Translations under genes and position numbers: made by a program | NCBI GenBank assembly: GCA_964479945.1 | Contig: CAYZNS010000002.1 | Coordinates: forward strand, 13,172-77,171 | Direction: 5' to 3' | Source of the DNA: an uncultured Candidatus Saccharibacteria bacterium | GTDB taxonomy: Bacteria > Patescibacteriota > Minisyncoccia > Ryanbacterales > 2-02-FULL-48-12 | Length of the DNA: 64,000 nt | Shown here: in pieces, positions 10,805-53,152 of the stretch | Numbering within the stretch: the first letter of the stretch is position 1 | Layout: every line of letters starts with the position of its first letter | The notes under the pieces: model-generated | The model's input: only the letters and a program-made list of their open reading frames with translations | The model's database searches: none | Told to the model about the DNA's origin: nothing

Positions 10805-13651
10805 TTAAAAAGTCCCGGTAGCAATATATGTCAAGGTGGTGGTATAACTACCGGCTTCGGTGGGGGCTGCGATATTGGCAATATATGAAATAGTGCAGGT
10901 CGTATCGTTGATTGAACCGCTCGAACTTACGATTGTCTCTCCTGACACGAATTTAAAGTTGTCAACGGTGCTGTAGCCGGTCGCGGCGGCAGCGACTGGT
11001 GAAGTGCCAGAACATTCCGCACCCACATTCGGTGTCGCATTATCTTTCGCGTTGATTCCGAACTGCTCTGTGCCGACAGAACTTGCGGCGGCGGTTGACA
11101 TGGCGGTAATGGTATTGCCGCTCGAGGTTAGTGTAGAACCAGAGTAGGTAACAACTACTCCATTGGCGGCATTCGTCCCGACGGTGATGGTATGAGAACC
11201 AGTGCTCACGGCGCTGCTTGACAATGTTCCAAGATTTATAGAATTTGCCCCTAAGCTGAAAGTAAGGGTTGGCCCGGCACCTCCGCCAGCGAGTGTAACT
11301 TGCGCGATAACATCGGCAGAGTTCAAAGCCGTGCCGGCGTTCGTCACCCTGAAACAATACACGCCGCCGTCCGTAGCGTTTGTATTTGCCTGAAAAACAT
11401 ACTCCACTTCGGTATATTGGTTTTGAGCCAAGGTAATCGCGCCTGATTGGTTAGATGTGCTTTCTACCTGATCGCCGGCCACGAAAGTATATGCTTCGGC
11501 ATTTGTAAGCTGAGCAGTAGTCGGATCGCCATCAACATAAAAACTGCTGCCGCTCAAAGTCATATCAAAATGTTCGGTAGTCGCCGTATCAGGAACCGCA
11601 GCATAACTCTCTCCACTGTATGCAGTGTCGCAGGTGCCACTCTGCGCCGCCCACTCCAAACGATAATTGTAAGCGGAAGCGCTGCCGCCGGTATTGTCCA
11701 CTTGAAAACGGAGTCGGATATTGGTGCTTTTGGCAAGGCCAGTGTGCACCGCATCCTCCGTCTGCGCCCAAGTTGCAGCAGGAACGGTGTAGGTTACCAA
11801 AACATATAAAGTTGAAATTTCTGCTTTGTTGCCGCTTCCCGTAAGCACCAATTCCATAGCATTCATCCGCGTCGTGTTGATGCTCAAGCCGGTAAATTGT
11901 TGTGTTTTTGTCTGGTCGGCCCCAGTAATAGCTTGGGCTGACCCCATCGAATCCGTGACGCCACATTCAACCGCATCACTGGCTATATTTATGCAATATC
12001 CTAAAGTGATGCTTGAATTCGGATTTCCGACATCATCTGCCCCGGCAACCGTGATATCAAGCTGAGTTACCGTCACGCCTGCCGGAAGAGCGTCATTAGC
12101 AAGCGTATAATAATCCGTCGCGGCGGCAAGTAAAAGTTGAGAGGTTTCCAGATCACTTGTCGGTGCGGTTGCCGAAGTATCCGCAGTGTCATCATCCACG
12201 CAATCCCATTCGCTTCCAGCAGTACATCCGCTAACGATGCTGAAACCCACCGCGCCAAAGCCATTGCCGGTCGGATTGAAATAAAGCGTTTGGTTTGTGT
12301 CTCCTTCTGGGCCGTTATCATTTCTCCAACGATAGTGGTCTTGAAACACATTTGGCAGAAGATTAAGGGTTGTCGCGCCGGAAATAGCCACAGCGGTGGC
12401 CGGACTCACCACTCCCGCTGAAACTGTCACCTCCGTGGATGGGTCGGTAATTTCAATCTCAAAAGTATCGGCATTAGGCGCACCGGACGCAACATTTAAT
12501 TGAACATAAACGCATATTTGGGAAGTGCCGACTACCATTGCGCTGTCGCCCGTTATCGCGGCTTTTTCCGAAGCGTTAAAACCAACGCCTGTGGCGTTAA
12601 AAGCTGTGGCGTCGCCGGGGATGGAAGCGGAACAACTTGCCTCTGTTTTGTAATATAATTTTACATTGGAAAGGTAGGTCTGAGCGACAAGCGAGGCATC
12701 CGTTTCGCTGATAGTTATGGCGGTAACATTTGCCGTGCCCTCATTTCTGACAAATGTAAAGGCACCTCCCACATACTGGTTAGTTGAAGGAATGTTCATA
12801 TTGGCGGTTTGGGTGCCGGTTGTCCCGACCGTAATCGTTGAAGGAGCGGGTTTGAGCGCCAAGGAAATCGCCCCTTTATATGTAGTGTTTGCCATTGTCA
12901 CAGCCGTTGTTGTGTATGACCCGGCACTTGCTTTCTCGCCCGTTGCCAAACAATGTCCTCCTCCTAGACCTTGTGTGCTGGAGTTATCCGTTCTTTCCTG
13001 TATATTTGCCAGATCCGCGTTCGTCCAGCCGGAACATTCGGTTGTGCTATTAGCGTTCCTGCTTGTCGAAGTTATAAGGACAATCAAGGCGTCGGCTACC
13101 GATGTTGTTGCGCCGGGGATAGTGCCACTCGTGTCATTGGCCGCGCTGTCGTTTCCGCCTGCACCCGTGTCCCACGGATCACCGGAGGTTATTACTCCAG
13201 TAAAACAATGTATCTGACCTTCTGTGTTATTGATAGAATCCGCGACTACCGGCGCGGAGTCGCCGCCGACAGTGCGCTTCCAATACAATGCCAACATGGA
13301 AGCCGGATCCGTAGCAGCCGTGCCGGCACCTTGCGGAGACCATGTAGGAACTTCAACAAACCCATTTGCTGTGGTCAGTGTAATCGCTTGGTTTTCCGAT
13401 GACACAGCCAGCAGACAGACATCGTTAGCTGCCATGTCCGCGGGATATGGCGGTGTTATCGCACCGGTTCCTGCCGTAAAAGTGCCGGAATTCCGATATC
13501 CTGGCAACGCCGCCAGCGCTTTCTGAATCCCCGGCGGAAAATTAAAAATTTGAGGAAATCCCGAAAAAATCCAAGAGAAAACTAAAACTGTTACCAGAAA
13601 GAATCTGGAAATTTTCAAAACCACGCTTTTTGGAGGCAAAAACTCTTTCAT
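10805..13651 (-). CDS. large Thr/Ser/Ala-rich secreted surface protein with shared C-terminal domain (CscC-like)
   Basis: 948 aa with a signal peptide. Low-complexity beta-rich body. C-terminal ~150 aa homologous to the 9308..10363 product. Confidence 0.5.
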   Translation of the reverse strand: MKEFLPPKSVVLKISRFFLVTVLVFSWIFSGFPQIFNFPPGIQKALAALPGYRNSGTFTAGTGAITPPYPADMAANDVCLLAVSSENQAITLTTANGFVEVPTWSPQGAGTAATDPASMLALYWKRTVGGDSAPVVADSINNTEGQIHCFTGVITSGDPWDTGAGGNDSAANDTSGTIPGATTSVADALIVLITSTSRNANSTTECSGWTNADLANIQERTDNSSTQGLGGGHCLATGEKASAGSYTTTAVTMANTTYKGAISLALKPAPSTITVGTTGTQTANMNIPSTNQYVGGAFTFVRNEGTANVTAITISETDASLVAQTYLSNVKLYYKTEASCSASIPGDATAFNATGVGFNASEKAAITGDSAMVVGTSQICVYVQLNVASGAPNADTFEIEITDPSTEVTVSAGVVSPATAVAISGATTLNLLPNVFQDHYRWRNDNGPEGDTNQTLYFNPTGNGFGAVGFSIVSGCTAGSEWDCVDDDTADTSATAPTSDLETSQLLLAAATDYYTLANDALPAGVTVTQLDITVAGADDVGNPNSSITLGYCINIASDAVECGVTDSMGSAQAITGADQTKTQQFTGLSINTTRMNAMELVLTGSGNKAEISTLYVLVTYTVPAATWAQTEDAVHTGLAKSTNIRLRFQVDNTGGSASAYNYRLEWAAQSGTCDTAYSGESYAAVPDTATTEHFDMTLSGSSFYVDGDPTTAQLTNAEAYTFVAGDQVESTSNQSGAITLAQNQYTEVEYVFQANTNATDGGVYCFRVTNAGTALNSADVIAQVTLAGGGAGPTLTFSLGANSINLGTLSSSAVSTGSHTITVGTNAANGVVVTYSGSTLTSSGNTITAMSTAAASSVGTEQFGINAKDNATPNVGAECSGTSPVAAAATGYSTVDNFKFVSGETIVSSSGSINDTTCTISYIANIAAPTEAGSYTTTLTYIATGTF

Positions 13652-15004: not shown

Positions 15005-16915
15005 CTAAGCGACTGGCCAAAATAGCGTCTCTCTCTCTAGATTTTTGATAATTTCTTTGGCGTGCTTGATGGAATTTTCCTTCGCCTCAATTTGCTCCAC
15101 GATTTCATTTTGCACGTCTAAAGGCGGGAGTGGGATTTTGATTTCATAAAAATGATCAATGTTCAGATTCTTTTGCGCACCGCCACGGGCACACATAAAA
15201 ATTTCTTCCTGCCGCTGCAATAAAATTTTCCCAACAAAATCCTTGCTCAACTTATCTTGATATTCGGATTTAACTGAAAAAGTTCCGCCGGAATCCATAA
15301 GCCAAAATTTTTCAGGCACATATCGCACACAGTGCTCTGCCATGGCAAATCGAGCAATTAAGTAGTCATTTTCTCGATTAAATTTGTCTGTTCTAAAACT
15401 TTCTCCACCGCCGCCATAGACAGGATATTTTGTACCGCGATTTCCATGTTTTGTGATTCTTTCTCCAAAATTTAGCTTGATCAGTTTCCCCAATTCAATC
15501 ATTGGCCACTTTTCATTTTTTACAGCAGCAACGTCTCTGTATCTTTCGCTGGTTAAACTGTATTCACCGCTTTCAGCAATTTTTTCTTTTTTAACCCAAA
15601 GCGCAAGAGTACTTTCTCCCGCCTGCGCCGAAGCTTCGACGGGCAGGTGTTTTTTGCCATTCTTCCACGCGTCTAAAATCGCCAATGTTTCCGGCAGATC
15701 GTTTTTATCAATCTTCCGTCTTTGCGCGCCGAGATCAAAGCCGTCGTTTTCTACCTTTACAAACAAAATCTCATCGCTCTTTTTGGCAAGCTGATTATCA
15801 AAAAAGAGAATACTTGTTTTTACATTCCCTTTGCCGCCGGGTTTGGCAAACACGCCTTGCGGCAAGGAGACGACGGCATACAAGCCATCTTCAACTAACT
15901 TTTTCCGTAATTCTTTATATGCCGAATCATTCCTAAAAATCACTCCTTCCGGCACGATTATACCCGCCCGTCCCTTGATGTTGAGGTGCTCCAAAATATA
16001 ATCAACAAACAACACCTCACTGCGCGTGGCTTGCACGGAAAAACGCTTGTGGGGGCGAATACCGCCCTTTGGCGTCATAAACGGCGGATTGGCGAGGATT
16101 ACGTCAAAGGTATCGTCCCAGCGATCCTCATACGTCAACGTGTCGTACTCGTATATTTTCGGATTGGGGAAATGGTGCAAGTACATATTCACGATGGCGA
16201 TCCGCATCATTCCCGGATCAATGTCGTAACCGACAAAATTACTCATCATTTTTTGCTTTTCTTCCGGTGAAAGGCGTTTTTCCGCGCTCGTCGGCTCGCC
16301 CGATGGGTCTTTGCCGTCGTGCTGGCGTAAAATGTGTTTGTACGCGGAAATCAAAAATCCGGCCGTGCCGCAAGCGGGGTTCAAAATTGTTTCGTTTTTC
16401 TTCGGCGCGACAACTTCAACGATAAAATCAATAATATGGCGCGGCGTGCGAAATTGTCCGGCTTCTCCCGAAGTGCCTATAACATTCAGCAGATATTCAT
16501 AGGCGTCGCCCAAGTCCTCACTGTGGTCAAAAATAAATCCGTCAATTTCTTTCAAAAATAAATTTAATGTTTGAGCGTCGTTATATGGCAATGCCGCACT
16601 CTTAAAAATATCCCTAAAAAGTTGCGGGATGTGTGAATTTTTGGACATATTCGTGATGGCTTGCACATACAGATCAAGCCGCTCGGCTCCAGAAAGCCGT
16701 TTATCCAAAAGTTTGGTCCAGCTGTATTTGGCAAAATCCTCCACAAAATATTGCGCTTTCAACCCGACTCCTTCATTTTCTTTATCCATATCGTCCATAA
16801 ACTTGTAAATCAGCGCAATCGTAATCTGATCAACCTGTAATTGTGGGTTTGGAATTCTCCCAACAAGAATATCGCGCGCCGAGTCAATTTTTCGTTTTGT
16901 GATTTGGTCAAGCAT
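15005..16915 (-). CDS. hsdM: type I R-M N6-adenine DNA methyltransferase fused to a C-terminal target-recognition domain
   Basis: HsdM N-terminal domain, then the MTase core (ILNPACGTAGFLISAY ... ILANPPF). The C-terminal ~200 aa are HsdS-like (TRD plus IPLPPLDVQNEIVEQIE). Confidence 0.8.
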   Translation of the reverse strand: MLDQITKRKIDSARDILVGRIPNPQLQVDQITIALIYKFMDDMDKENEGVGLKAQYFVEDFAKYSWTKLLDKRLSGAERLDLYVQAITNMSKNSHIPQLFRDIFKSAALPYNDAQTLNLFLKEIDGFIFDHSEDLGDAYEYLLNVIGTSGEAGQFRTPRHIIDFIVEVVAPKKNETILNPACGTAGFLISAYKHILRQHDGKDPSGEPTSAEKRLSPEEKQKMMSNFVGYDIDPGMMRIAIVNMYLHHFPNPKIYEYDTLTYEDRWDDTFDVILANPPFMTPKGGIRPHKRFSVQATRSEVLFVDYILEHLNIKGRAGIIVPEGVIFRNDSAYKELRKKLVEDGLYAVVSLPQGVFAKPGGKGNVKTSILFFDNQLAKKSDEILFVKVENDGFDLGAQRRKIDKNDLPETLAILDAWKNGKKHLPVEASAQAGESTLALWVKKEKIAESGEYSLTSERYRDVAAVKNEKWPMIELGKLIKLNFGERITKHGNRGTKYPVYGGGGESFRTDKFNRENDYLIARFAMAEHCVRYVPEKFWLMDSGGTFSVKSEYQDKLSKDFVGKILLQRQEEIFMCARGGAQKNLNIDHFYEIKIPLPPLDVQNEIVEQIEAKENSIKHAKEIIKNLERETLFWPVA

Positions 16916-30686: not shown

Positions 30687-30848
30687 ACATAAACTATAAG
30701 ACTTTTCACACCTTATTCCCATATTACGAACAGTGTCCGAGTTGTGCATAACCCAATCCCCCACTATACTATCCCTATGGCAAATCCTCCACCGCAACAA
30801 TCGTCCGGGTCCGTTTCTCTGCACCCCGCCTCATTTGCAGGGGTACGC

Positions 30849-33455
30849 ATGCCGCCGCAAAACGTGGAAGCCGAAATGTCCGTTTTAGGATCGCTCATGC
30901 TAGACAAAGACGCATTCAATAAAACCGCCGATATCTTAAAACCGGCTTGTTTTTATCGTGACCAGCATCGGGTTATTTATGAGGCAATGCAGGAATTATT
31001 TGAAAAGCGCGTGCCGATTGACGTGCTTTCCACATCCAACCGGCTCCGTGAAAAAAAGAAATTGGAAGAAACCGGCGGGGTCAGTTACTTAACGCAGCTC
31101 GTGAATATGGTGCCAACTGCGAGCAATGTTGCGCATTATGCCGATATCGTAAACCGCAAATACGTGCTGCGAAGCATTATCTCCATATCGCAGGACATAA
31201 GCCAATTGGGCTATCAGGAATCCGACGACGTAGATATATTGCTGGACGAGGCAGAGCGAAAAATTTTTAGCATCTCGCACGGCTCGCTCCGCCAGCGGTT
31301 CGCCCCCGTTTCCGAAGCGCTGGAAGCCGCATGGGATCGCATAGACAATCTTCAAAAAGGCGAGCATCTGCGTGGCGTCCCCACAGGCTTTACTCAGCTG
31401 GACAATCTTCTCTCCGGACTCCAAAAATCGGATATGATTGTCCTTGCCGCGCGGCCTTCTTTCGGTAAAACGAGTCTCGCACTTGATATAGCGCGTAAAG
31501 CGGCCGTCAAGGAAAACACGCCAGTCGGCATATTTAGCCTGGAGATGTCCACCGAACAGGTTATTGACCGCCTTCTTGCGGCAGAAGCCAATGTGGATTC
31601 ATGGCGGCTCCGCACGGGCCGGCTTTCCCATGATTCCGATGATTTTCTACGCATCCGCGAAGCGCTGGACCGCCTTTCCAAAGCGCCAATTTTCATAGAC
31701 GACGAGCCATCCAATAACATTCTTCAAATGCGCGCGATGGCCCGGCGGCTGCAAACCGAACACGGGCTGGGGCTTATTATCGTGGACTATCTGCAACTTA
31801 TTACCTACCACAAAGGAACCTCCGACAGCTTGGTACGCGAAGTTACGGAAATCTCCCGCGCATTGAAAGGCCTCGCGCGCGAACTCGAAGTGCCTGTGCT
31901 CGCCATCTCCCAGCTTTCGCGCGCCGTAGAGCAGCGCCATCCGCCGATACCGAAATTGTCGGATTTGCGGGAATCCGGATGTCTTACGGGAGATACTCTC
32001 CTGACCAATGCCGATACGGGGAAACGCACCCCGATCAAAGAACTGGTCGGTAAAACAAATATTCCGATATTTTCATTTACCGCGGACCATAAAATAGAAC
32101 GACGCCTTATTTCCAACGTATTTCCAAACGGGAATAAAAAAATATATCAAATCACAACGAGAAGCGGGCGCACCATAAAAGCGTCAGAGAATCATCCATT
32201 TTTTACCATACACGGTTGGCGCGCTCTTAAAACATTGACTGCAGGCATGCATGTTGCCGTCCCGCGCCACATAGCACCAATGCATTCCGTTTCTGTAATG
32301 TCTGATTCGGAACTTACCCTGCTTGCTCATCTTATCGGAGACGGATGTATTCTTCCTCGCCAACCCTTCCATTACACCAGCGCAGATGAATATAATATTG
32401 CCGTTGTAAGCGCATCAGCAAACAAACTTTTTGGCATACAGCCGCGCACGATCCGCCAAAAAAATTGGTATCATATATATCTGCCATCGCCCTATCGTCT
32501 GACACGCAATAAAAGACATCCAATATCAAATTGGTATAAAAAGATGGGGCTTCCTTTATCAAGATCATATGAAAAAACTCTCCCGGATTCTCTATTCCAA
32601 TGCGGTAATAAGAAAATTCAACTCTTCCTCCATCATCTTTGGGCAACAGACGGAAATATATCTTATAAAAATATTCCTGCCAGGAAAACTGCAGGGTCAA
32701 TATATTATGCTACTTCAAGCACTGTTCTCGCAGAACAAGTACAACATCTTCTCTTGCGTCTTGGTATTTTTAGCACTCTGCGGACAATCCCGCATAAAAA
32801 ATACCGGCCTATGTATCATGTATACATAGAAGGCAGTGTCATGCAAATCCGTTTCTGTGAACTCATAGGATCATATGGAAAGCGAGGCAGTATCGTTCCC
32901 GAACTTCTCAAAAAACTGAAATTAATCAATCCAAATACGAATACGGATATCATACCACGCGAAGCATGGCGTATCCTTATTGAACCGATAAAAGAATCTT
33001 TACAGATAAGTTGGCGGGATTTCGCAAAAAAAATTGACATGGCGTACTGCGGAAGCGCTCTCTTTAAAAACGGGTTGTCTCGTAATAGAATGCTACGCGT
33101 AGCAGAGGCTTTTAGTAGCGAACCATTATGTAAAATAGCACAGTCGGATATTTATTGGGATAAAATAGAATCTATTATCTCTCTTGGAGAAGAAGAAGTT
33201 TTTGATGCGACGGTGCCCGAAACCCATAATTTTATCGCAAATGATATTGTTGTCCATAACAGTATTGAACAAGATGCGGATGTCGTCATGTTCCTTTATC
33301 GGGAGGATAGATACAAAGACGACTCCGCGCAAAAAAACGTAACGGAAGTCCAGATTGCAAAACACCGCAATGGCCCCTTGGGCAAAGTAAGCTTATATTT
33401 TAATCCGAATACTATCTCGTTCTCCGATATCGACAGGCGGGTTGAGGAAGTGTAA
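30849..33455 (+). CDS. dnaB: replicative DNA helicase DnaB interrupted by an intein
   Basis: Start at MPPQNVEAEMSVLGSLM. Walker A ARPSFGKTSLAL and the H4 motif SDLRESG|SIEQDAD are split by the intein. Extein ~476 aa. Confidence 0.85.
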   Translation: MPPQNVEAEMSVLGSLMLDKDAFNKTADILKPACFYRDQHRVIYEAMQELFEKRVPIDVLSTSNRLREKKKLEETGGVSYLTQLVNMVPTASNVAHYADIVNRKYVLRSIISISQDISQLGYQESDDVDILLDEAERKIFSISHGSLRQRFAPVSEALEAAWDRIDNLQKGEHLRGVPTGFTQLDNLLSGLQKSDMIVLAARPSFGKTSLALDIARKAAVKENTPVGIFSLEMSTEQVIDRLLAAEANVDSWRLRTGRLSHDSDDFLRIREALDRLSKAPIFIDDEPSNNILQMRAMARRLQTEHGLGLIIVDYLQLITYHKGTSDSLVREVTEISRALKGLARELEVPVLAISQLSRAVEQRHPPIPKLSDLRESGCLTGDTLLTNADTGKRTPIKELVGKTNIPIFSFTADHKIERRLISNVFPNGNKKIYQITTRSGRTIKASENHPFFTIHGWRALKTLTAGMHVAVPRHIAPMHSVSVMSDSELTLLAHLIGDGCILPRQPFHYTSADEYNIAVVSASANKLFGIQPRTIRQKNWYHIYLPSPYRLTRNKRHPISNWYKKMGLPLSRSYEKTLPDSLFQCGNKKIQLFLHHLWATDGNISYKNIPARKTAGSIYYATSSTVLAEQVQHLLLRLGIFSTLRTIPHKKYRPMYHVYIEGSVMQIRFCELIGSYGKRGSIVPELLKKLKLINPNTNTDIIPREAWRILIEPIKESLQISWRDFAKKIDMAYCGSALFKNGLSRNRMLRVAEAFSSEPLCKIAQSDIYWDKIESIISLGEEEVFDATVPETHNFIANDIVVHNSIEQDADVVMFLYREDRYKDDSAQKNVTEVQIAKHRNGPLGKVSLYFNPNTISFSDIDRRVEEV
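31980..33260 (+). other. DnaB intein (427 aa) with LAGLIDADG homing-endonuclease domain, inserted at the DnaB-b site
   Basis: Begins at Cys (CLTGDTLLT) and ends VVHN followed by Ser. Block B TIKASENHPFFT. LAGLIDADG-like motifs LLAHLIGDGCI and LHHLWATDGNI. Confidence 0.8.
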
Positions 33456-46081: not shown

Positions 46082-49000
46082 TTATGGATTTACCAAAAAC
46101 GTGGTGGGGTTCTCTGTCATGGTAAGATAATTAACACGCGCGCGATTAGCATAATCAATCCCCAGATAACTATAATATGCCCCGACGCGATAGAGTTTGG
46201 CAGGATCAAGAATAGGACCATCATACGCTTTTGAACCAGTCTGACTGCTGATAGGAACCGAAACAGTGCTTCGATATACCTGGGTTCTGCTTACTTCTTC
46301 ATGAACATGAATCGAGTAACCGGCTGTAATGGTGCTTGCCCAGTGAGCGGGCCATCCGCTTTGCGGCACGGTCCACTGAATGGTAAACGGCTGCAGGACC
46401 GGCGAGAACGCGGAGGTTGGACTTATAATACGCGTAGAAGATAATGCATGCTGATGCAGCATATCGGAAATAATGGTTTCAATGCCTGTGGAATCAACTA
46501 CCGCCACATAATAACTATATTCCCCGATGGGAACAGTATTGCCATAGTCAAATATGCGCGATGTTGCGGTCCATGCTTCATAATCTGTCCTGCAGGAAAA
46601 CCCGAGCGACCAATTTAGATCAGTGGTAACGCTCGTTCCGCACGCGGTACTGGCAAGTGGAAATGATCCACTCAACGCAAATTGAGTTTCTCCCGGTTTT
46701 TTCTCATAGAGCCGAATAGCGCGCACATCAGTAAATTTTGTTCTATCAAACCCGAAGCGAACAGACCGCACAAAGCGATGTGAATCGTACTGACTCCCTC
46801 CCCAATATCCGCCTTGATCTGATTTGACTTCTATACTCAATACTTTTGTAGCACTCGCTCCCGCGCTGTCGGTAACACCCGCGGTAAATGTATAGGTCCC
46901 GGGTACCACCAATGGCCATTGTGAAATCTGGCCGGTTGCAGCAAGTTTAAGCCCATTGGGGAAATTGCCTCCCACAATCTGCCATTGATAGGGCGCAACG
47001 CCTCCGGTTGCCGAAAGCGCTACACTACGCAGGGATCCATCTTGATTAACTCCAAAATAAGATATACCCCACGCGCCAGCTGGTAAATTAGTAGTTGTAA
47101 TAGAAAGCGTTGATGTGGTCAAAGCCGTAGAATCTATCCAAATAGTGGTTACGACCTCGGGCATTGCGTTATAAGTATCCCAAGCCAATGAGTCTTGATT
47201 CATGATAATACGGCCGGCATCAATGAGCACAATATACTTCTTTGCGGGATCAAGCGCTGGACCATCATAGACAAAGGATCCGGTTATGGATCCGGCGGGC
47301 GCATAATTATACATAAATTTCTGCCAATACACCTGCCGCGTATCGCTATCATAAAGAGCAATGCGATAACTAGGCGCTGTACCTACAGGCCAACCACTCG
47401 TAAGTGTCCATTGAAATGTTATAGGAGAACCGATTGTTTGAGCGCCAGATGGGCTTACAATTTTTACCTTCGGCGTTGCATACTTCTTGATTATTTTTGA
47501 TGAGGCACGCGCAAATCCGGATGGAGGAAGGATTGTTTCATTACCTGAAGAATCAACAGCTGCAACGTAATACTCGTAGGTACCAACCAGGTAGGTTGAT
47601 GAATGAAATTGGCTGGTGCGCCGGGCGGTCCATTGATCCAATGAGCCAAGTGGATCAGAGCGTCCACAGCCAAAATCCAATGCCCAACCGGTGACGCTAA
47701 CAACATTACTGTTACACCTCCATGACACGAGTAGCGAAAAGGTTGCCACAGAGTTAAACGCACTGTCTCCCGGCCGCTTTTCATAAATGCGTAGCGATTG
47801 TACAGTTGGATACGACGAGGTGGCGAAAGTGAAATTGACCCGATCAATAAATGTATCCGGCAGCCATCCATTGTGCCATGTGGCAGAAGCGGGTGCGTAA
47901 CCGACTCTGAAAGGACCGTCACTTGCATCCTTTATAGCTGGATCAGCCGAGTCAGAAATCTCAATCGTAAATCCAGTAAGGTTCTGCATGTTAGCCGGAA
48001 CACTCCAAGTATAGCTGAATGTACCGCTTTCCGCGTTCTGGGGAATTTTGGTTCCCAATGTCGTGAAGAGATTTCCATCCTTAAGTATTTTAATGGCAAC
48101 AGTTTTGGACACTAAACCGCTTGAGGTCCATGAAATAGTAACCATTTCATCAACCATCAAAAGTTCTCCGCTGTTTGGATAGAGTACCATTATGCTGGAT
48201 GCAGGAGCCGACGAAAGAGATGCAACGATCGGAGCCCCCGCAATCTCAATGGCTAACACCCGAGATCCGATGACACTTCTTCCATCAGTGGCCTCCACTG
48301 TGAACTCGGCTACCCCCGCGATGGAAGGCATACCGGAGATAACGCCGCTTGAAGAATCAAGAGCAAGACCTGAAGGCAATGAACCGACTTTCACACTCCA
48401 ACGGAGCGGCGCAACACCATTTACCGCCGTAAGTGCTGCACGGTATTCTTTCCCGACAACACCTGCGGGCAATCGTTCGTGGAAAAAGATATCACCCTTG
48501 AGATTAGAATCGCCAGGAACGAGATTTGAAAATGCTGAAGCAAAGGCCACAAATCGACCATCCGCGCTGATTGCTGGATCCCCGAAGATATGCGCAGCCG
48601 AACCCTGTTGGCCGCTATCAGAAATACTTACGCGGCTTGTCCGTTTTGTCTCCCGGTCATACACAAAAATATCGGGTTGGGAATTGGTATCTCCGACTAT
48701 GAGGTTTGAGGCGTAAGATTCAAAAACCATATAGCGGCCATCAGCACTGATTGTAGTATTTACGCTATGACCATTCCCTTCTCCTCCCATCGAGGAAACA
48801 CTCACCCGAGTCGTGGTCTTAGCAACACGATCGTGGACAAACACATCCCCCACGCCATTAGCATCACCAGAGATAAGATCAGATGCGCTAGAAACAAACG
48901 TGACATAGCGGCCGTCAGAACTTATTGATGGCGCATAAAGAGAGCTTGGCCCTGCGATACCGGTACTCTGGAGGCCACTATTCGTGATACTCACACGCGT

Positions 49001-52000
49001 AGTCTCTTTTGTATCTCGATTATGCACAAACACATCGCCAAGACCATTTGTATCACCGGAAACAAGCCCCGTAGAAAAAGAAAGGAATGCCACAAACTTG
49101 CCATTGGCGCTGATGGCCGGATAAAAACTTGATGCTCCAAATCCCTGACCACCGCTTGAAGAAACGCTCACGCGGGTTGTTGTTCTGGTCTCTCTATCGT
49201 GAATAAAGATATCCTGCTGTAAGTTGGTATCACCCGTAACCAAATTTGATGCATCAGAAGCAAAAACAATATATCGCCCGTCGGCGCTCAAACTCGGCGT
49301 CTGACTCACGCCATTTGACTGACTACCACCGTCGGCTATGCTCACGCGGGTTGTTGTTCTGGTCTCTCTATCGTGAATAAAGATATCCGACATGCCATTG
49401 GTGTCATCTGACACAAGGTTGGTTGCTGTTGAGCTAAAAACTATATATCGCCCGTCAGCGCTTATTACTGGTACATCATCTGTTGCTGGTGATGGACCAT
49501 TTGCCTGTGTGCCGTCATTTGCTACATTCACACGGGTTGTTGTTTTGGTTTCTCGATCATGAATGAAGATATCTGACACGCCATTGGTGTCATCTGATAC
49601 CAAGTTAGTGGCTATTGAGCTAAATACCACATACCGTCCATTACTACTTATAGCGGGGCCGCCGCTACTTATATTGTTTCCCTGCGTGCCATTACTTGAT
49701 ACACTTACGCGGGTCGTGGCAGGCGGTGTGATATAAATTGCGGCGCTTGATACGGTTGGCGCAACTGTGATACTAAAGTTCTCGGTGTCACTCAAACCAT
49801 CCCTATCAGAAACTTTGGCAGTAAAATTGAAAGTGCCAGATGTAGTAGGATTGCCCGAAATGCTTCCCTGGTCATTAACGGTGGTAAGCGCAAGGCCAGC
49901 CGGAAGCGCGCCGGCCGCAATGCTCCAGGCAAACGGCGGCGTTCCGCTTTGCACAGAAATTTTTGCGCTATACAGTGTTCCAACTGTTCCGCCTGGTAAC
50001 TGTGCAAAGACAATTTCAGGAACCGGCTGCGGGGCAGTTGTTGTTTGCGTAGAAACTGGCGCAGGAACCGGTCCGTTGGAAAATACCGCGCCGCGTGCAA
50101 CAGAAAGAACAGCACCTCCTATTTCTACATGGGGAATCAGTTGATTAACAAAACCTCCCCATGCGTAACTCCCCGGGCCGTCAGTAATCAGTGCCCAGTT
50201 GGCGCCGGAGTCGGATGATTTATACAACCCATCGCCTTGGCATGTGGTATAGGTAATCGCGTACATCGCTTCGCTTTCAGCGCTACCCAAAACTCGACCG
50301 TTTTGGAATGAAACTGGCAGCGTTCCTCCCCGAATCCATGTAGAGCCGTGATCCATTGAAGTATATGCAACAAGATGTGTTGATCCCCGTTCTACTGTTC
50401 CGCCAGTGTAGGGATCTTCTGGAATTTTCCCGATAAAGAACAGTTGTCCATCTTTATTTTTAGCAATTCTGTACTGGTGGGGATTGCCGCCCCAGTAAAG
50501 ATACGCGCTGAACGTTTTTGTCAAGGTTCCATTGATCCAGCGATAGATGCCGCGGTACTGCTTTGAATCGCTTACTTGTATATCTTCTGAATCCATAAAT
50601 ACCAGTGCGCCATCGTCCGCCTCCACGATGGATTCTAACCATCTGGAATGCGTGAATAATTTCTGCCACGTTGCCCCGCTATCGGCGCTGCGATATACCT
50701 CGGCAGTGCCATAGAGTGAGAGACCAACGGTGGCGACAAGCACGTTGTCTCGCTGCACAAGAAGATTATTCACTACTACGGAATCGGACGGCGAAAGCGC
50801 AGACGGCGGCTTTTGCACGAATATCCATGTGGCGCCACCGTCATTACTTTTCCAAAGTCGCGAGCCGCCGGCAAATAACACACCATTTTTATCCTCTGCG
50901 AGGGAGCGTATAGAATCATAGGTGCGATTCGGGTCAGATACAACATAGGGGATATTCACCAATGTCCACGTTTTCCCGTTATCAGATGATTTGCCGATAA
51001 CTGGAACTTTCGCGGTTATTGTTCCCGCGCTGTCTTTTACTGATTTCACTCCGCCCGCGATTAACGCGCCGTTTTTAGTTTTGATCATGTCTGCCATGAC
51101 GATATTTTCCAGATTATTTTTTGTTGAATCGCTTGTAGAAAAATTCCATGTTGCCGGATCCCATCCCGTTTCAAAACTTCCTACCCATTGAAAGTCGGGG
51201 GTAGCTGGACACGTAAGGATTGCCGTGGACGATGCTGGCGCAATTGTGATACTAAAGTTCTCGGTGTCACTCAAACCATCCCTATCAGAAACTTTGGCGG
51301 TGAAATTGAAAGTGCCAGCGGTGATAGGATTGCCTGAAATGCTTCCTTGGCCATCAACGGTGGCAAGCGCAAGGCCAGCCGGAAGCGCGCCGGCCGCAAC
51401 ACTCCATGTAAACGGCGGCGTTCCGCTTTGCACAGAGATTTTTGCGCTATATGGTGTGCCAACTGTTCCGCCTGGCAACTGTGCAAAGACAATTTCGGGA
51501 ACAGGATTGTTTGCTACTGAAAACAAAATAGGATAATCATCCGTGTTGACGTTGCCCGCGCTATCCTGACATCGGACATTATATCCAAATCCTGTTGGGT
51601 ACGACGGACTTATCGACATCACCGATACAACCGAGGAATGAGATGTGGAATTCGTATTGGAAAATGTATTTGCCATTTGCTCATAACTTACCCCTGACGC
51701 ATCCGCAGAATATTTACAAGTAGCATTTTCATCAGTATTCAATGATATAGTGACGGATGTCGTGCCTGCGGGAAACGTGCCGGAAGGCGCTTCATTGAAA
51801 CGCACGGGAGGAGTGATATCCGTAGAAGGCGGCAGAACCGATCCGGTTATAGTGGAGGCAGAACCTGAAAACCAGCGAACGTGAACGGCGCTGTTTCCTT
51901 CAAAACAATATTGATATTGTTCTGACTCTGCAAGCGCTGTTTTCGTTTGTCCAAATCCTCGCAGACTGCGAGATTTACTATTTATGCATGCCTGAAAAAC

Positions 52001-52939
52001 ATTCTCTCCCGTTTTTGCCGCGAGTCCGACCACTCTCCCTGGAGTAACACGGTCAAAACAAGGCCGCGTAGTGGAACTTGCGCAATTACTGCCGGTAAGA
52101 CCAGAAAGCATTGCTCTGGTTTTAGGCCCCACAATGCCAACCGCCTCAATGCCATTCTTTTCTTGAAAGCGCTTTACGGCCGCTTCCGTCGCGGGCCCAT
52201 AAAACCCCGTTGCAAGGCCTTGGGGATAAACATTTTTATCTTGCGCCAAAAATTCCTGTAATTGTTTTACATCATCTCCGGTAGATCCGCGTTGTAATGT
52301 TCTCGTAAGCGCGAGTTCTGACATAGGAGATGCTGATCTTTGAATTCTTGAAACAACTTGCTGTTGAGATTGTAATTCCGCAACTTGTGTTTGTAATAAT
52401 TGGATCCGGTTTTGTAATTCTTTAGTAAGCTGTTCTTGAACTTCCCCGATTTGCGTTCGCAAGTTTTGTATTACTTCTTTTGTCTCTTGCGATGATTGCT
52501 GTTGGACAACTTCCGGTTGAATAACAGGAGACTGCGGACATGTATAACAAACTTCCGCTTTTGGCGAAGACCCAAGTTGAGTAGGTGTTGCTTCTTCCGC
52601 CGGTGTTGCAGACTGATCTGTTCCCACATAAGGCTGTGCCGGAGTTGCCTGTTGCGCTGGTTGTGTGGAAGTAGGCGGCGTGCTTACCGGAAAAGAAGGA
52701 ACAATAGGAGTTATTTTTTTATCCGGTGTCGCAGGAGTTGCGGGAGTACTGGTTCCTCTCGCTGGTTGAGCAGGAGTAGCAGCCGCAAACAACGACAAAA
52801 AAGCCTGCTGTAAAGACGCAAGCTGTGATTGTAATTGTTGGATGGTATGGAAATCGTTATGATCCGCAAACGCGGCAATTGGCGAGAATGCTAATGCAAT
52901 AAAAAAACTGCTTGATAAAAAAACATGCTTTATCTTCAT
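46082..52939 (-). CDS. 2285-aa secreted multidomain surface protein with coiled-coil, peptidoglycan-binding, putative-Ig (cadherin-like), BNR/Asp-box propeller and ~9 PD40/TolB-like repeats
   Basis: Signal peptide. PG_binding_1-like LQRGSTGDDVKQLQEFL...GPATEAAVKRFQ. Repeated SxDxGxTW Asp-boxes. Repeated DIFIHDRETxTTTRVSV WD40-like blades. Two Ig-like domains near-identical at the DNA level. Confidence 0.7.
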   Translation of the reverse strand: MKIKHVFLSSSFFIALAFSPIAAFADHNDFHTIQQLQSQLASLQQAFLSLFAAATPAQPARGTSTPATPATPDKKITPIVPSFPVSTPPTSTQPAQQATPAQPYVGTDQSATPAEEATPTQLGSSPKAEVCYTCPQSPVIQPEVVQQQSSQETKEVIQNLRTQIGEVQEQLTKELQNRIQLLQTQVAELQSQQQVVSRIQRSASPMSELALTRTLQRGSTGDDVKQLQEFLAQDKNVYPQGLATGFYGPATEAAVKRFQEKNGIEAVGIVGPKTRAMLSGLTGSNCASSTTRPCFDRVTPGRVVGLAAKTGENVFQACINSKSRSLRGFGQTKTALAESEQYQYCFEGNSAVHVRWFSGSASTITGSVLPPSTDITPPVRFNEAPSGTFPAGTTSVTISLNTDENATCKYSADASGVSYEQMANTFSNTNSTSHSSVVSVMSISPSYPTGFGYNVRCQDSAGNVNTDDYPILFSVANNPVPEIVFAQLPGGTVGTPYSAKISVQSGTPPFTWSVAAGALPAGLALATVDGQGSISGNPITAGTFNFTAKVSDRDGLSDTENFSITIAPASSTAILTCPATPDFQWVGSFETGWDPATWNFSTSDSTKNNLENIVMADMIKTKNGALIAGGVKSVKDSAGTITAKVPVIGKSSDNGKTWTLVNIPYVVSDPNRTYDSIRSLAEDKNGVLFAGGSRLWKSNDGGATWIFVQKPPSALSPSDSVVVNNLLVQRDNVLVATVGLSLYGTAEVYRSADSGATWQKLFTHSRWLESIVEADDGALVFMDSEDIQVSDSKQYRGIYRWINGTLTKTFSAYLYWGGNPHQYRIAKNKDGQLFFIGKIPEDPYTGGTVERGSTHLVAYTSMDHGSTWIRGGTLPVSFQNGRVLGSAESEAMYAITYTTCQGDGLYKSSDSGANWALITDGPGSYAWGGFVNQLIPHVEIGGAVLSVARGAVFSNGPVPAPVSTQTTTAPQPVPEIVFAQLPGGTVGTLYSAKISVQSGTPPFAWSIAAGALPAGLALTTVNDQGSISGNPTTSGTFNFTAKVSDRDGLSDTENFSITVAPTVSSAAIYITPPATTRVSVSSNGTQGNNISSGGPAISSNGRYVVFSSIATNLVSDDTNGVSDIFIHDRETKTTTRVNVANDGTQANGPSPATDDVPVISADGRYIVFSSTATNLVSDDTNGMSDIFIHDRETRTTTRVSIADGGSQSNGVSQTPSLSADGRYIVFASDASNLVTGDTNLQQDIFIHDRETRTTTRVSVSSSGGQGFGASSFYPAISANGKFVAFLSFSTGLVSGDTNGLGDVFVHNRDTKETTRVSITNSGLQSTGIAGPSSLYAPSISSDGRYVTFVSSASDLISGDANGVGDVFVHDRVAKTTTRVSVSSMGGEGNGHSVNTTISADGRYMVFESYASNLIVGDTNSQPDIFVYDRETKRTSRVSISDSGQQGSAAHIFGDPAISADGRFVAFASAFSNLVPGDSNLKGDIFFHERLPAGVVGKEYRAALTAVNGVAPLRWSVKVGSLPSGLALDSSSGVISGMPSIAGVAEFTVEATDGRSVIGSRVLAIEIAGAPIVASLSSAPASSIMVLYPNSGELLMVDEMVTISWTSSGLVSKTVAIKILKDGNLFTTLGTKIPQNAESGTFSYTWSVPANMQNLTGFTIEISDSADPAIKDASDGPFRVGYAPASATWHNGWLPDTFIDRVNFTFATSSYPTVQSLRIYEKRPGDSAFNSVATFSLLVSWRCNSNVVSVTGWALDFGCGRSDPLGSLDQWTARRTSQFHSSTYLVGTYEYYVAAVDSSGNETILPPSGFARASSKIIKKYATPKVKIVSPSGAQTIGSPITFQWTLTSGWPVGTAPSYRIALYDSDTRQVYWQKFMYNYAPAGSITGSFVYDGPALDPAKKYIVLIDAGRIIMNQDSLAWDTYNAMPEVVTTIWIDSTALTTSTLSITTTNLPAGAWGISYFGVNQDGSLRSVALSATGGVAPYQWQIVGGNFPNGLKLAATGQISQWPLVVPGTYTFTAGVTDSAGASATKVLSIEVKSDQGGYWGGSQYDSHRFVRSVRFGFDRTKFTDVRAIRLYEKKPGETQFALSGSFPLASTACGTSVTTDLNWSLGFSCRTDYEAWTATSRIFDYGNTVPIGEYSYYVAVVDSTGIETIISDMLHQHALSSTRIISPTSAFSPVLQPFTIQWTVPQSGWPAHWASTITAGYSIHVHEEVSRTQVYRSTVSVPISSQTGSKAYDGPILDPAKLYRVGAYYSYLGIDYANRARVNYLTMTENPTTFLVNP
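49780..50045. repeat. intragenic near-identical ~270-bp duplication (copy 1; copy 2 at ~51245-51510)
   Basis: Plus-strand ORF-track translations of the two regions are ~90% identical. They encode VPEIVFAQLPGGTVGT...DRDGLSDTENFSIT. Confidence 0.7.
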
Positions 52940-53152
52940 ATTAAAAAGAAACCGCTACCAACTTTGAGGCGACATGCATGGTCATTACATTATAGTAATA
53001 AAATTCGACGTTTTTATAATACCACACGCCTGCAATTTAAATTTATATTCCTGTGGATAAAATTACGGTACACTATAGACATTACATTATGAAATAGCAC
53101 TCTGACGACCCGAACGCTAATTGGCGTTCGGGTCGTCAAAGCACAATGAGCG

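Follow-up and report, generated by a model that had tools for sequence, protein, structure and literature searches.

The window, a 64,000-nucleotide (nt) stretch of contig CAYZNS010000002.1 from an uncultured Candidatus Saccharibacteria bacterium, carries on its minus strand a giant gene of 6858 nt (46082..52939) that starts with ATG and encodes 2285 amino acids (aa). An earlier interpretation made from the DNA letters (the sequence-only reading) had claimed a giant open reading frame (ORF) of this length at these positions, and the ORF listing and translation bear it out. The window is chromosomal, with ArgRS, RNase J, an intein-containing DnaB, a Cu-ATPase and one tRNA-Leu present. Within the giant gene, two copies of a He_PIG domain bracket a BNR/Asp-box propeller, and we regard the resulting repeat as a fixed part of the gene's structure that does not act as a switch. 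The three elements are as follows.

51236..51505, minus strand: He_PIG copy A, the upstream repeat arm (aa 479-568), placed by repeat scan, codon table and Pfam He_PIG
50027..51235, minus strand: BNR/Asp-box propeller, aa 569-971 (403 aa), with five S-x-D-x-G-x-x-W boxes, a Sortilin-Vps10 match and a core modeled by AlphaFold2 (AF2)
49757..50026, minus strand: He_PIG copy B, the downstream repeat arm (aa 972-1061 by the codon table), 91% identical to copy A in DNA and 90% in amino acids

A self-repeat scan of the window revealed one long direct repeat in the giant gene, the A/B pair, at 91% identity. The two copies align without gaps over 270 nt, with 247 nt identical and 23 mismatched (91.5% DNA identity), and each holds one complete Pfam He_PIG (PF05345) Ig-like domain. 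Base-by-base comparison and MAFFT alignment both showed sharp borders: identity rises from background to ~91% and falls off again no more than a few bases from where the domain ends. From the start of one copy to the start of the other is 1479 nt, exactly 493 codons, which places both in the same frame. Identical tracts measure 54, 35 and 27 nt, only one of them longer than 40 nt. Thus, the ~90% nucleotide identity over ~270 bp described in the sequence-only reading is confirmed by the count of 247/270 nt, but its coordinates (49780-50045 and 51245-51510) were shifted by ~5-20 nt and imply an offset of 1465.

Since every other pair of He_PIG domains within the gene is only 46-49% identical in DNA, and since similarity drops at the domain edges, the A/B repeat is not due to chance. 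At the protein level, 81 of 90 residues (90%) are the same in A and B, while self-comparison gave 35-39% identity between either copy and He_PIG C (aa 1491-1567) and 38-41% between either copy and He_PIG D (aa 1966-2040). Among the external matches recovered, the best He_PIG domain was at most 55% identical to A or B in amino acids; a homologue search with copy A alone, which gives weak support, returned short proteins only and missed the parent protein itself. By these comparisons, A and B are clearly each other's nearest relatives. Because their 90% identity contrasts with 35-41% to the other He_PIG domains and at most 55% to external ones, the simplest origin is an intragenic duplication of exactly one He_PIG domain.

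The substitutions between the copies carry a selection signature. The NG86 method gave dN of 0.046, dS of 0.24 and dN/dS of ~0.19, and LWL85 and YN00 gave dN/dS of 0.16-0.19. Codon differences comprise 11 that are synonymous and nine that change the amino acid; 14 of the 23 mismatches fall at third codon positions, and 18 are transitions and five transversions. The low dN/dS, together with dS of 0.24, shows that both copies have been kept by purifying selection over considerable time. Thus, where the sequence-only reading proposed a recent duplication or gene conversion, the duplication stands, as A and B are closest relatives, but dS of 0.24 argues against a recent one, and to call the copies near-identical overstated their resemblance, given that dS and the 8.5% DNA divergence.

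We weighed three other origins for the pair. The repeat would be an assembly artefact, the danger that the sequence-only reading had itself named, if a single genuine He_PIG had been expanded or wrongly joined to yield the second copy. In favour of this is only that repeats are generally hard to assemble from short-read metagenomes. The same structure recurs in independently assembled contigs: two Joint Genome Institute (JGI) contigs, of 36.9 kb (dataset 3300017437) and 52 kb (dataset 3300022563), span the whole giant gene and match the window at 100% identity along 23.2 and 12.2 kb, respectively, and an identical protein is found in a 94-kb NCBI contig of a metagenome-assembled genome (MAG) and in ENA and gem records, with the start codon call as the sole difference. 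In addition, the longest exact repeat of 54 nt is resolvable by short reads, and the 23 differences preserve the frame and show a coding-type pattern, with third positions predominating. The concordant contigs and coding-type mismatches effectively refute an artefact, which we regard as extremely improbable. Concerted evolution, in which recurrent intragenic gene conversion homogenised older He_PIG domains or an old duplicate pair, is a better candidate, since 18 codons (54 nt) at the 3′ end of the repeat are free of differences, synonymous ones included, and the repeat boundaries fall on domain edges. However, differences between A and B are unclustered: in a test for mosaic structure or conversion tracts, the 54-nt identical run lay within chance expectation (permutation P = 0.11; P = 0.25 for third positions alone), and no recent partial conversion tract was detectable. 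The claim of gene conversion thus gained no specific support, as the 23 differences are spread as chance predicts. Moreover, dS of 0.24 means that no homogenisation has occurred for a long time, and conversion cannot start at 46-49% nucleotide identity, so that a prior duplication would be needed anyway. We consider concerted evolution unlikely. The third possibility was that A and B are the template and variable repeats of a diversity-generating retroelement (DGR) acting on a surface protein. One study reportedly found DGR targets to be frequent in genomes of the Candidate Phyla Radiation (CPR), and a pair of repeats with ~90% identity, found in a large surface protein from a CPR-type organism, could fit. 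Yet mismatches involve every one of the four bases in each copy, with transitions predominating and no adenine specificity, both copies are complete, in-frame, selected protein domains, and no reverse transcriptase was seen among the annotated neighbours examined. The mismatch spectrum, with all four bases affected in both copies, led us to reject the DGR explanation, which has next to no chance of being correct.

We also considered whether the repeat could vary the size of the protein, as the sequence-only reading had suggested. In principle, a crossover between A and B would delete one He_PIG domain and the 403-aa propeller; since the 1479-nt offset equals 493 codons, the product would be in frame and would encode a 1792-aa protein. 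The arithmetic of the proposed deletion substrate is therefore sound, but the evidence for deletion is negative. At 270 nt with 8.5% divergence and its three short identical tracts, the pair is a weak recombination substrate: in B. subtilis, recombination drops log-linearly with divergence, 200-400-fold at ~8%, and efficient processing requires >40 bp of identity (PMC4824099). The 90% cluster contained the same sequence only, under three different start calls, with no deletion or expansion form, and a search of 5.8 billion protein clusters recovered no variant of ~1792 aa or ~2778 aa, and the next-best match shared 50% identity across just 16% of the query. Homologous recombination could in principle remove the propeller, but such events should be rare, and none was observed.

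A more demanding version of this idea is programmed or selected variation resembling that of periscope proteins, in which recombination at the repeat pair takes out or restores the BNR propeller in some members of the population. It would draw on the exact 493-codon offset, which keeps the product in frame, on the one 54-nt tract that exceeds the commonly cited minimal processing segment (PMC4824099), and on the proposal that high DNA identity between repeats enables such variation in surface proteins (PMC8201768). Set against these are the presence of just two copies, non-tandem and 8.5% diverged, a degree of divergence that cuts recombination by 2-3 orders of magnitude in B. subtilis (PMC4824099); the missing ~1792-aa and ~2778-aa proteins; and the absence of DNA repeats from the other family genes examined. 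Every copy of the gene that was recovered has the full length and the identical sequence, with no shorter or longer form among them, which speaks against the claim of size variation. We judge such variation quite improbable. It is very improbable that the pair constitutes a selected in-frame cassette through which a minority of cells of this episymbiont-type bacterium shed or regain the BNR "head" of their main wall-anchored surface protein, a form of phase variation in domain content; if true, this would extend the periscope idea from stalk length to ligand-binding repertoire. To our knowledge, host-attachment proteins are essentially unknown in this phylum (Patescibacteria). The size-variation idea is testable and at present without support.

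Around the repeat, the domain map required several corrections. The order given by the sequence-only reading held for the signal-like sequence, the heptad stretch, PG_binding_1, the BNR propeller and the Ig-like domains, but not for a nine-bladed second propeller or for adjacent modules at the end, and its list lacked two domains, one beta-rich (aa 365-478) and the other an Ig domain of the Kre9_KNH-like type. The remaining features, from the upstream flank to the C-terminus, are listed here.

53097..53144, minus strand: strong hairpin of 20 pairs that ends the upstream PDDEXK_1 gene, found by a terminator-like scan and in the sequence
52865..52939, minus strand: signal-peptide-like N-terminus, aa 1-25, MKIKHVFLSSSFFIALAFSPIAAFA followed by D, recognized by eye from its n-h-c organisation and A-x-A site (AFA before D)
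52325..52789, minus strand: Pro/Thr/Ala/Gln-rich linker (aa ~51-150), then a heptad-like Q/L/E-rich stretch (aa ~150-205), from a composition count and the sequence
52106..52282, minus strand: PG_binding_1 (PF01471), aa 220-278, Pfam 53.1 bits against a cutoff of 23
aa 280-360, minus strand: Cys-containing region, from the translation
51506..51847, minus strand: unannotated, family-conserved beta-rich domain, aa 365-478, with no Pfam match and 41-51% identity to family members and many metagenome loci
48470..49756, minus strand: seven-bladed PD40/TolB-like propeller, aa 1062-1490, with seven ISADGRY...DIFIHDR units and PD40 at 93.9 bits in seven stretches
48239..48469, minus strand: He_PIG C, aa 1491-1567, 35-39% identical to A/B by self-comparison and the best He_PIG aligner with family homologues
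47900..48184, minus strand: Kre9_KNH-like Ig domain (PF10342), aa ~1586-1680, Pfam match at 1588-1666, 30.6 bits against a cutoff of 24.6 when scanned alone
47090..47884, minus strand: C-terminal module 1, aa ~1686-1950, an FN3-like beta-sandwich pair, 34% identical to module 2, from the family alignment
46820..47044, minus strand: He_PIG D, aa 1966-2040, by self-comparison, with a Pfam K319L-like_PKD/He_PIG match at aa 1973-2038
46085..46804, minus strand: C-terminal module 2, aa 2046-2285, an FN3-like beta-sandwich pair and the C-terminus that defines the family, from an AF2 model with a predicted local distance difference test (pLDDT) score of 87 and Foldseek

Start calls for the gene differ among three gene callers, which chose aa 1, aa 48 or Met206 (window 52324-52939). 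Because only the ATG at 52939 yields the signal-peptide-like N-terminus, which later starts lose, the NCBI and ENA public records of the protein are probably truncated at the N-terminus. From the strong hairpin at the end of the upstream PDDEXK_1 gene, which may act as a terminator, the giant gene would begin its own transcription unit. The GC content at third codon positions is 0.41-0.46 in the gene centre, compared to 0.35 in the N-terminal part, a weak hint that the centre may have had a separate history.

By eye, the stretch at aa ~150-205 could form a coiled coil. A motif scan found no LPxTG motif in the giant protein, and nothing in it looks catalytic. Scanning the whole protein against Pfam He_PIG gave 107.2 bits (cutoff 24) in four stretches, the best at aa 488-566, and self-comparison confirmed the four copies. 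Each He_PIG precedes a different functional block, namely the BNR propeller, the PD40 propeller, the Kre9_KNH domain with an FN3 pair, and an FN3 pair. Since the blocks differ, He_PIG appears to act as a generic connector.

The BNR propeller resembles those of GH33 sialidases, sortilin Vps10 and Ycf48-like proteins in its five Asp-boxes, its Sortilin-Vps10 match (36.5 bits for the segment on its own, cutoff 33) and its fold. AlphaFold/AF2 modeled the propeller core with confidence, and Foldseek matched it to sialidases, sortilin and PLL lectins at 12-17% identity; sialidase structures reached only 15-17%, and the fold matches are generic. It differs from the known propellers in this low identity to solved structures, in being embedded in a multidomain protein while its nearest sequence relatives are stand-alone BNR proteins (419-479 aa, 35% identical), and in lacking the FRIP/RIP motif, which a motif scan did not find in aa 569-971. 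Despite the five Asp-boxes, we rejected a GH33 sialidase identity on the absence of FRIP and the generic nature of the fold matches.

The second propeller had been credited with about nine PD40/TolB-like blades, but both the motif units and the Pfam PD40 stretches number seven. These units are regular, with ~60 aa each, and a TTRVSV strand lies N-terminal to blade 1. Blades 1-3 are 72-77% identical in DNA over 155 nt (window 48800-49651), and a 78-nt core common to four blades is 63-71% identical; this similarity appears to reflect older internal duplications in the giant gene. Farther toward the C-terminus, two modules of ~240 aa each, 34% identical to each other, had been described as two ~230-aa tandem modules. 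They are not adjacent, as the fourth He_PIG (aa 1966-2040) sits between them. In the AF2 model, module 2 consists of two beta-sandwiches, for which the best Foldseek matches were tandem FN3 pairs (Ihog, cytokine receptors and RbmA); comparison with PDB profiles gave weak PKD/FN3 matches.

The giant protein belongs to a small family in which the N- and C-terminal parts are conserved and the centre is exchangeable. Homologues of 1300-2400 aa include P0002 (MEK7560410.1, a "peptidoglycan-binding protein" of a Patescibacteria group bacterium, also listed as P0072), P0005, P0006, P0009 and others. They match the giant protein at aa 1-310, 365-495 and 1495-2285 with 30-50% identity, and thereby share with it the signal, the coiled-coil-like stretch, PG_binding_1 and the aa 365-495 domain, as well as the C-terminal block of He_PIG, Kre9_KNH and double-FN3. 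The He_PIG-BNR-He_PIG-PD40 centre is not found in these homologues, which carry TIG and Kre9_KNH repeats instead. Because five other family genes contain no direct DNA repeat of at least 100 nt, high-identity internal repeats are not a family property. The loci of P0002, P0005, P0006 and P0009 show no synteny with the window apart from a downstream gene for a transmembrane-anchored Cys-rich protein of ~200 aa; these proteins belong to the family without being positional orthologues. When the double-FN3 module was used as a profile against 1.84 billion representatives (50% clustering), 55 matched at E ≤ 1e-30, and in most of them the module sits at the C-terminus of a large protein. In a genome scan based on a 5-sequence alignment, loci with this module carry the labels Patescibacteria group, Candidatus Sungiibacteriota, Parcubacteria group and, in one case, a Saccharibacteria bin; several of them come from groundwater.

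Many metagenome proteins contain relatives of the beta-rich domain (aa 365-478) at 36-51% identity, in some cases as tandem copies (loci L003 and L005); the domain is a candidate for an unannotated Ig-like domain family.

A design that accommodates these observations, and that we consider likely, is that the gene encodes a secreted, peptidoglycan-tethered, fibrillar-adhesin-like CPR protein in which a single duplicated He_PIG has diverged slowly and does not serve as an active switch. The giant protein would be exported and its signal peptide then cleaved, and PG_binding_1 near the N-terminus would hold it on the wall. Beta-sandwich spacers, comprising four He_PIG domains, one Kre9_KNH-like domain and two double-FN3 modules, would form a chain that projects outward, presenting the BNR and PD40 propellers, likely ligand-binding heads, and the terminal double-FN3 module for binding. 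One He_PIG would have been duplicated within the gene lineage, giving the copies that now flank the BNR propeller, and both would have been retained by purifying selection while drifting slowly to 8.5% DNA divergence. The repeat, its register, its identity as a domain, the signature of selection and the stability from one assembly to another are demonstrated, while we infer the surface location, wall anchoring, adhesion and order of these evolutionary events from the sequence. The A/B duplication is consistent with a variable centre that grows when a connector is duplicated and a new head inserted with it, and the duplicated He_PIG may be a snapshot of that process.

Several points weigh against this design. 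The signal peptide, coiled coil, anchoring and adhesion are read from sequence features and domain families. In the AF2 model of the He_PIG-BNR-He_PIG segment, only the propeller core is confident, and the He_PIG copies have low confidence because the alignment did not cover them. The agreeing assemblies may stem from related samples of one clonal population, and they say little about rare variants within it. No orthologue with the same central region was found in the protein search of 5.8 billion clusters or in the metagenome and genome scans: a metagenome scan with aa 440-1100 gave weak matches to the aa 365-478 domain only, and a genome scan with the full giant protein gave no match. Since no such orthologue is at hand, the duplication cannot be dated relative to speciation, and a past conversion of the whole domain cannot be distinguished from a single duplication.

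Among known systems, fibrillar adhesins (PMC9210967) provide the reference for the proposed fibrillar design. The likeness lies in the large size, the repeated beta-sandwich "stalk" (here four He_PIG, one Kre9_KNH-like and four FN3-like sandwiches in 2285 aa), and the putative binding and surface-anchor domains. Fibrillar adhesins are anchored by a C-terminal LPxTG, whereas the anchor here would be the N-terminal PG_binding_1; the polarity would therefore be reversed, with the C-terminus distal. The candidate binders also differ, being two internal propellers and the C-terminal double-FN3, and no known adhesive Pfam domain was found in the giant protein.

The concept of periscope proteins rests on repeats that are tandem and highly identical, on recombination within the gene and on length variation that has been observed (PMC8201768). 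Like SasG, Aap, Rib/alpha-C and the SHIRT arrays of Sgo_0707, the giant protein is a large surface protein of folded Ig-like domains, and the DNA similarity between domain copies could in principle permit in-frame intragenic recombination. In contrast to tandem arrays of many near-identical repeats, it has two non-adjacent copies, 8.5% diverged, with a 403-aa propeller between them; 91.5% identity over 270 nt is high for diverged domains but below that of typical near-identical periscope arrays. Length differences between strains are documented for periscope proteins, while no length variant was found among the copies recovered here. Moreover, a periscope crossover alters stalk length, whereas a crossover in this gene would alter domain content, as the propeller head would be lost. 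No known idea comes closer than the periscope concept, yet of its three testable defining features the gene lacks two. We conclude that the A/B pair is a real but ordinary internal domain duplication and that nothing shows it driving size variation. For one giant surface protein of an uncultivated, groundwater-type lineage of Patescibacteria, the analysis yields a corrected domain map, the practical value of which is limited. If the protein mediates attachment to a host or to particles, the two propellers would be the obvious ligand-binding candidates.

Directly downstream of the giant gene is a 31-aa transmembrane ORF (46064..45969, minus strand), in frame with a 172-aa Cys-rich repeat ORF (45956..45438); a TAA stop and four codons lie between them. 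The homologue at L011:16302-16910 is a single 202-aa protein that reads 'FARKGPLV' where the window has 'YMT*KGPIM' (asterisk, stop). Since the L011 homologue joins both parts in one protein, the pair in the window looks like a nonsense-split gene or a pseudogene. The TAA stop is present in all identical assemblies. The Cys-rich homologues (window 45438-45956; L011 16392-16886; L012 10035-10529; L013 9519-10031; L015 739-1248) are 45-49% identical and belong to no Pfam family. In at least three other Patescibacteria lineages they lie 0-2 genes downstream of giant family genes, which suggests a conserved functional linkage between the two.

Thioredoxin-like and DsbD_TM genes come after the Cys-rich ORF in the window. 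Elsewhere, the DnaB replicative helicase (30744-33455, plus strand) is split by an intein with a LAGLIDADG homing-endonuclease domain, and the related locus L011 carries an intein-containing SufB. At 15005-16915 (minus strand), N6_Mtase and specificity (Methylase_S) domains are fused in a single type I restriction-modification protein. A 948-aa neighbour (10805-13651) has no Pfam match, and a relative at least 90% identical to it occurs in another MAG (MDO8560835.1).

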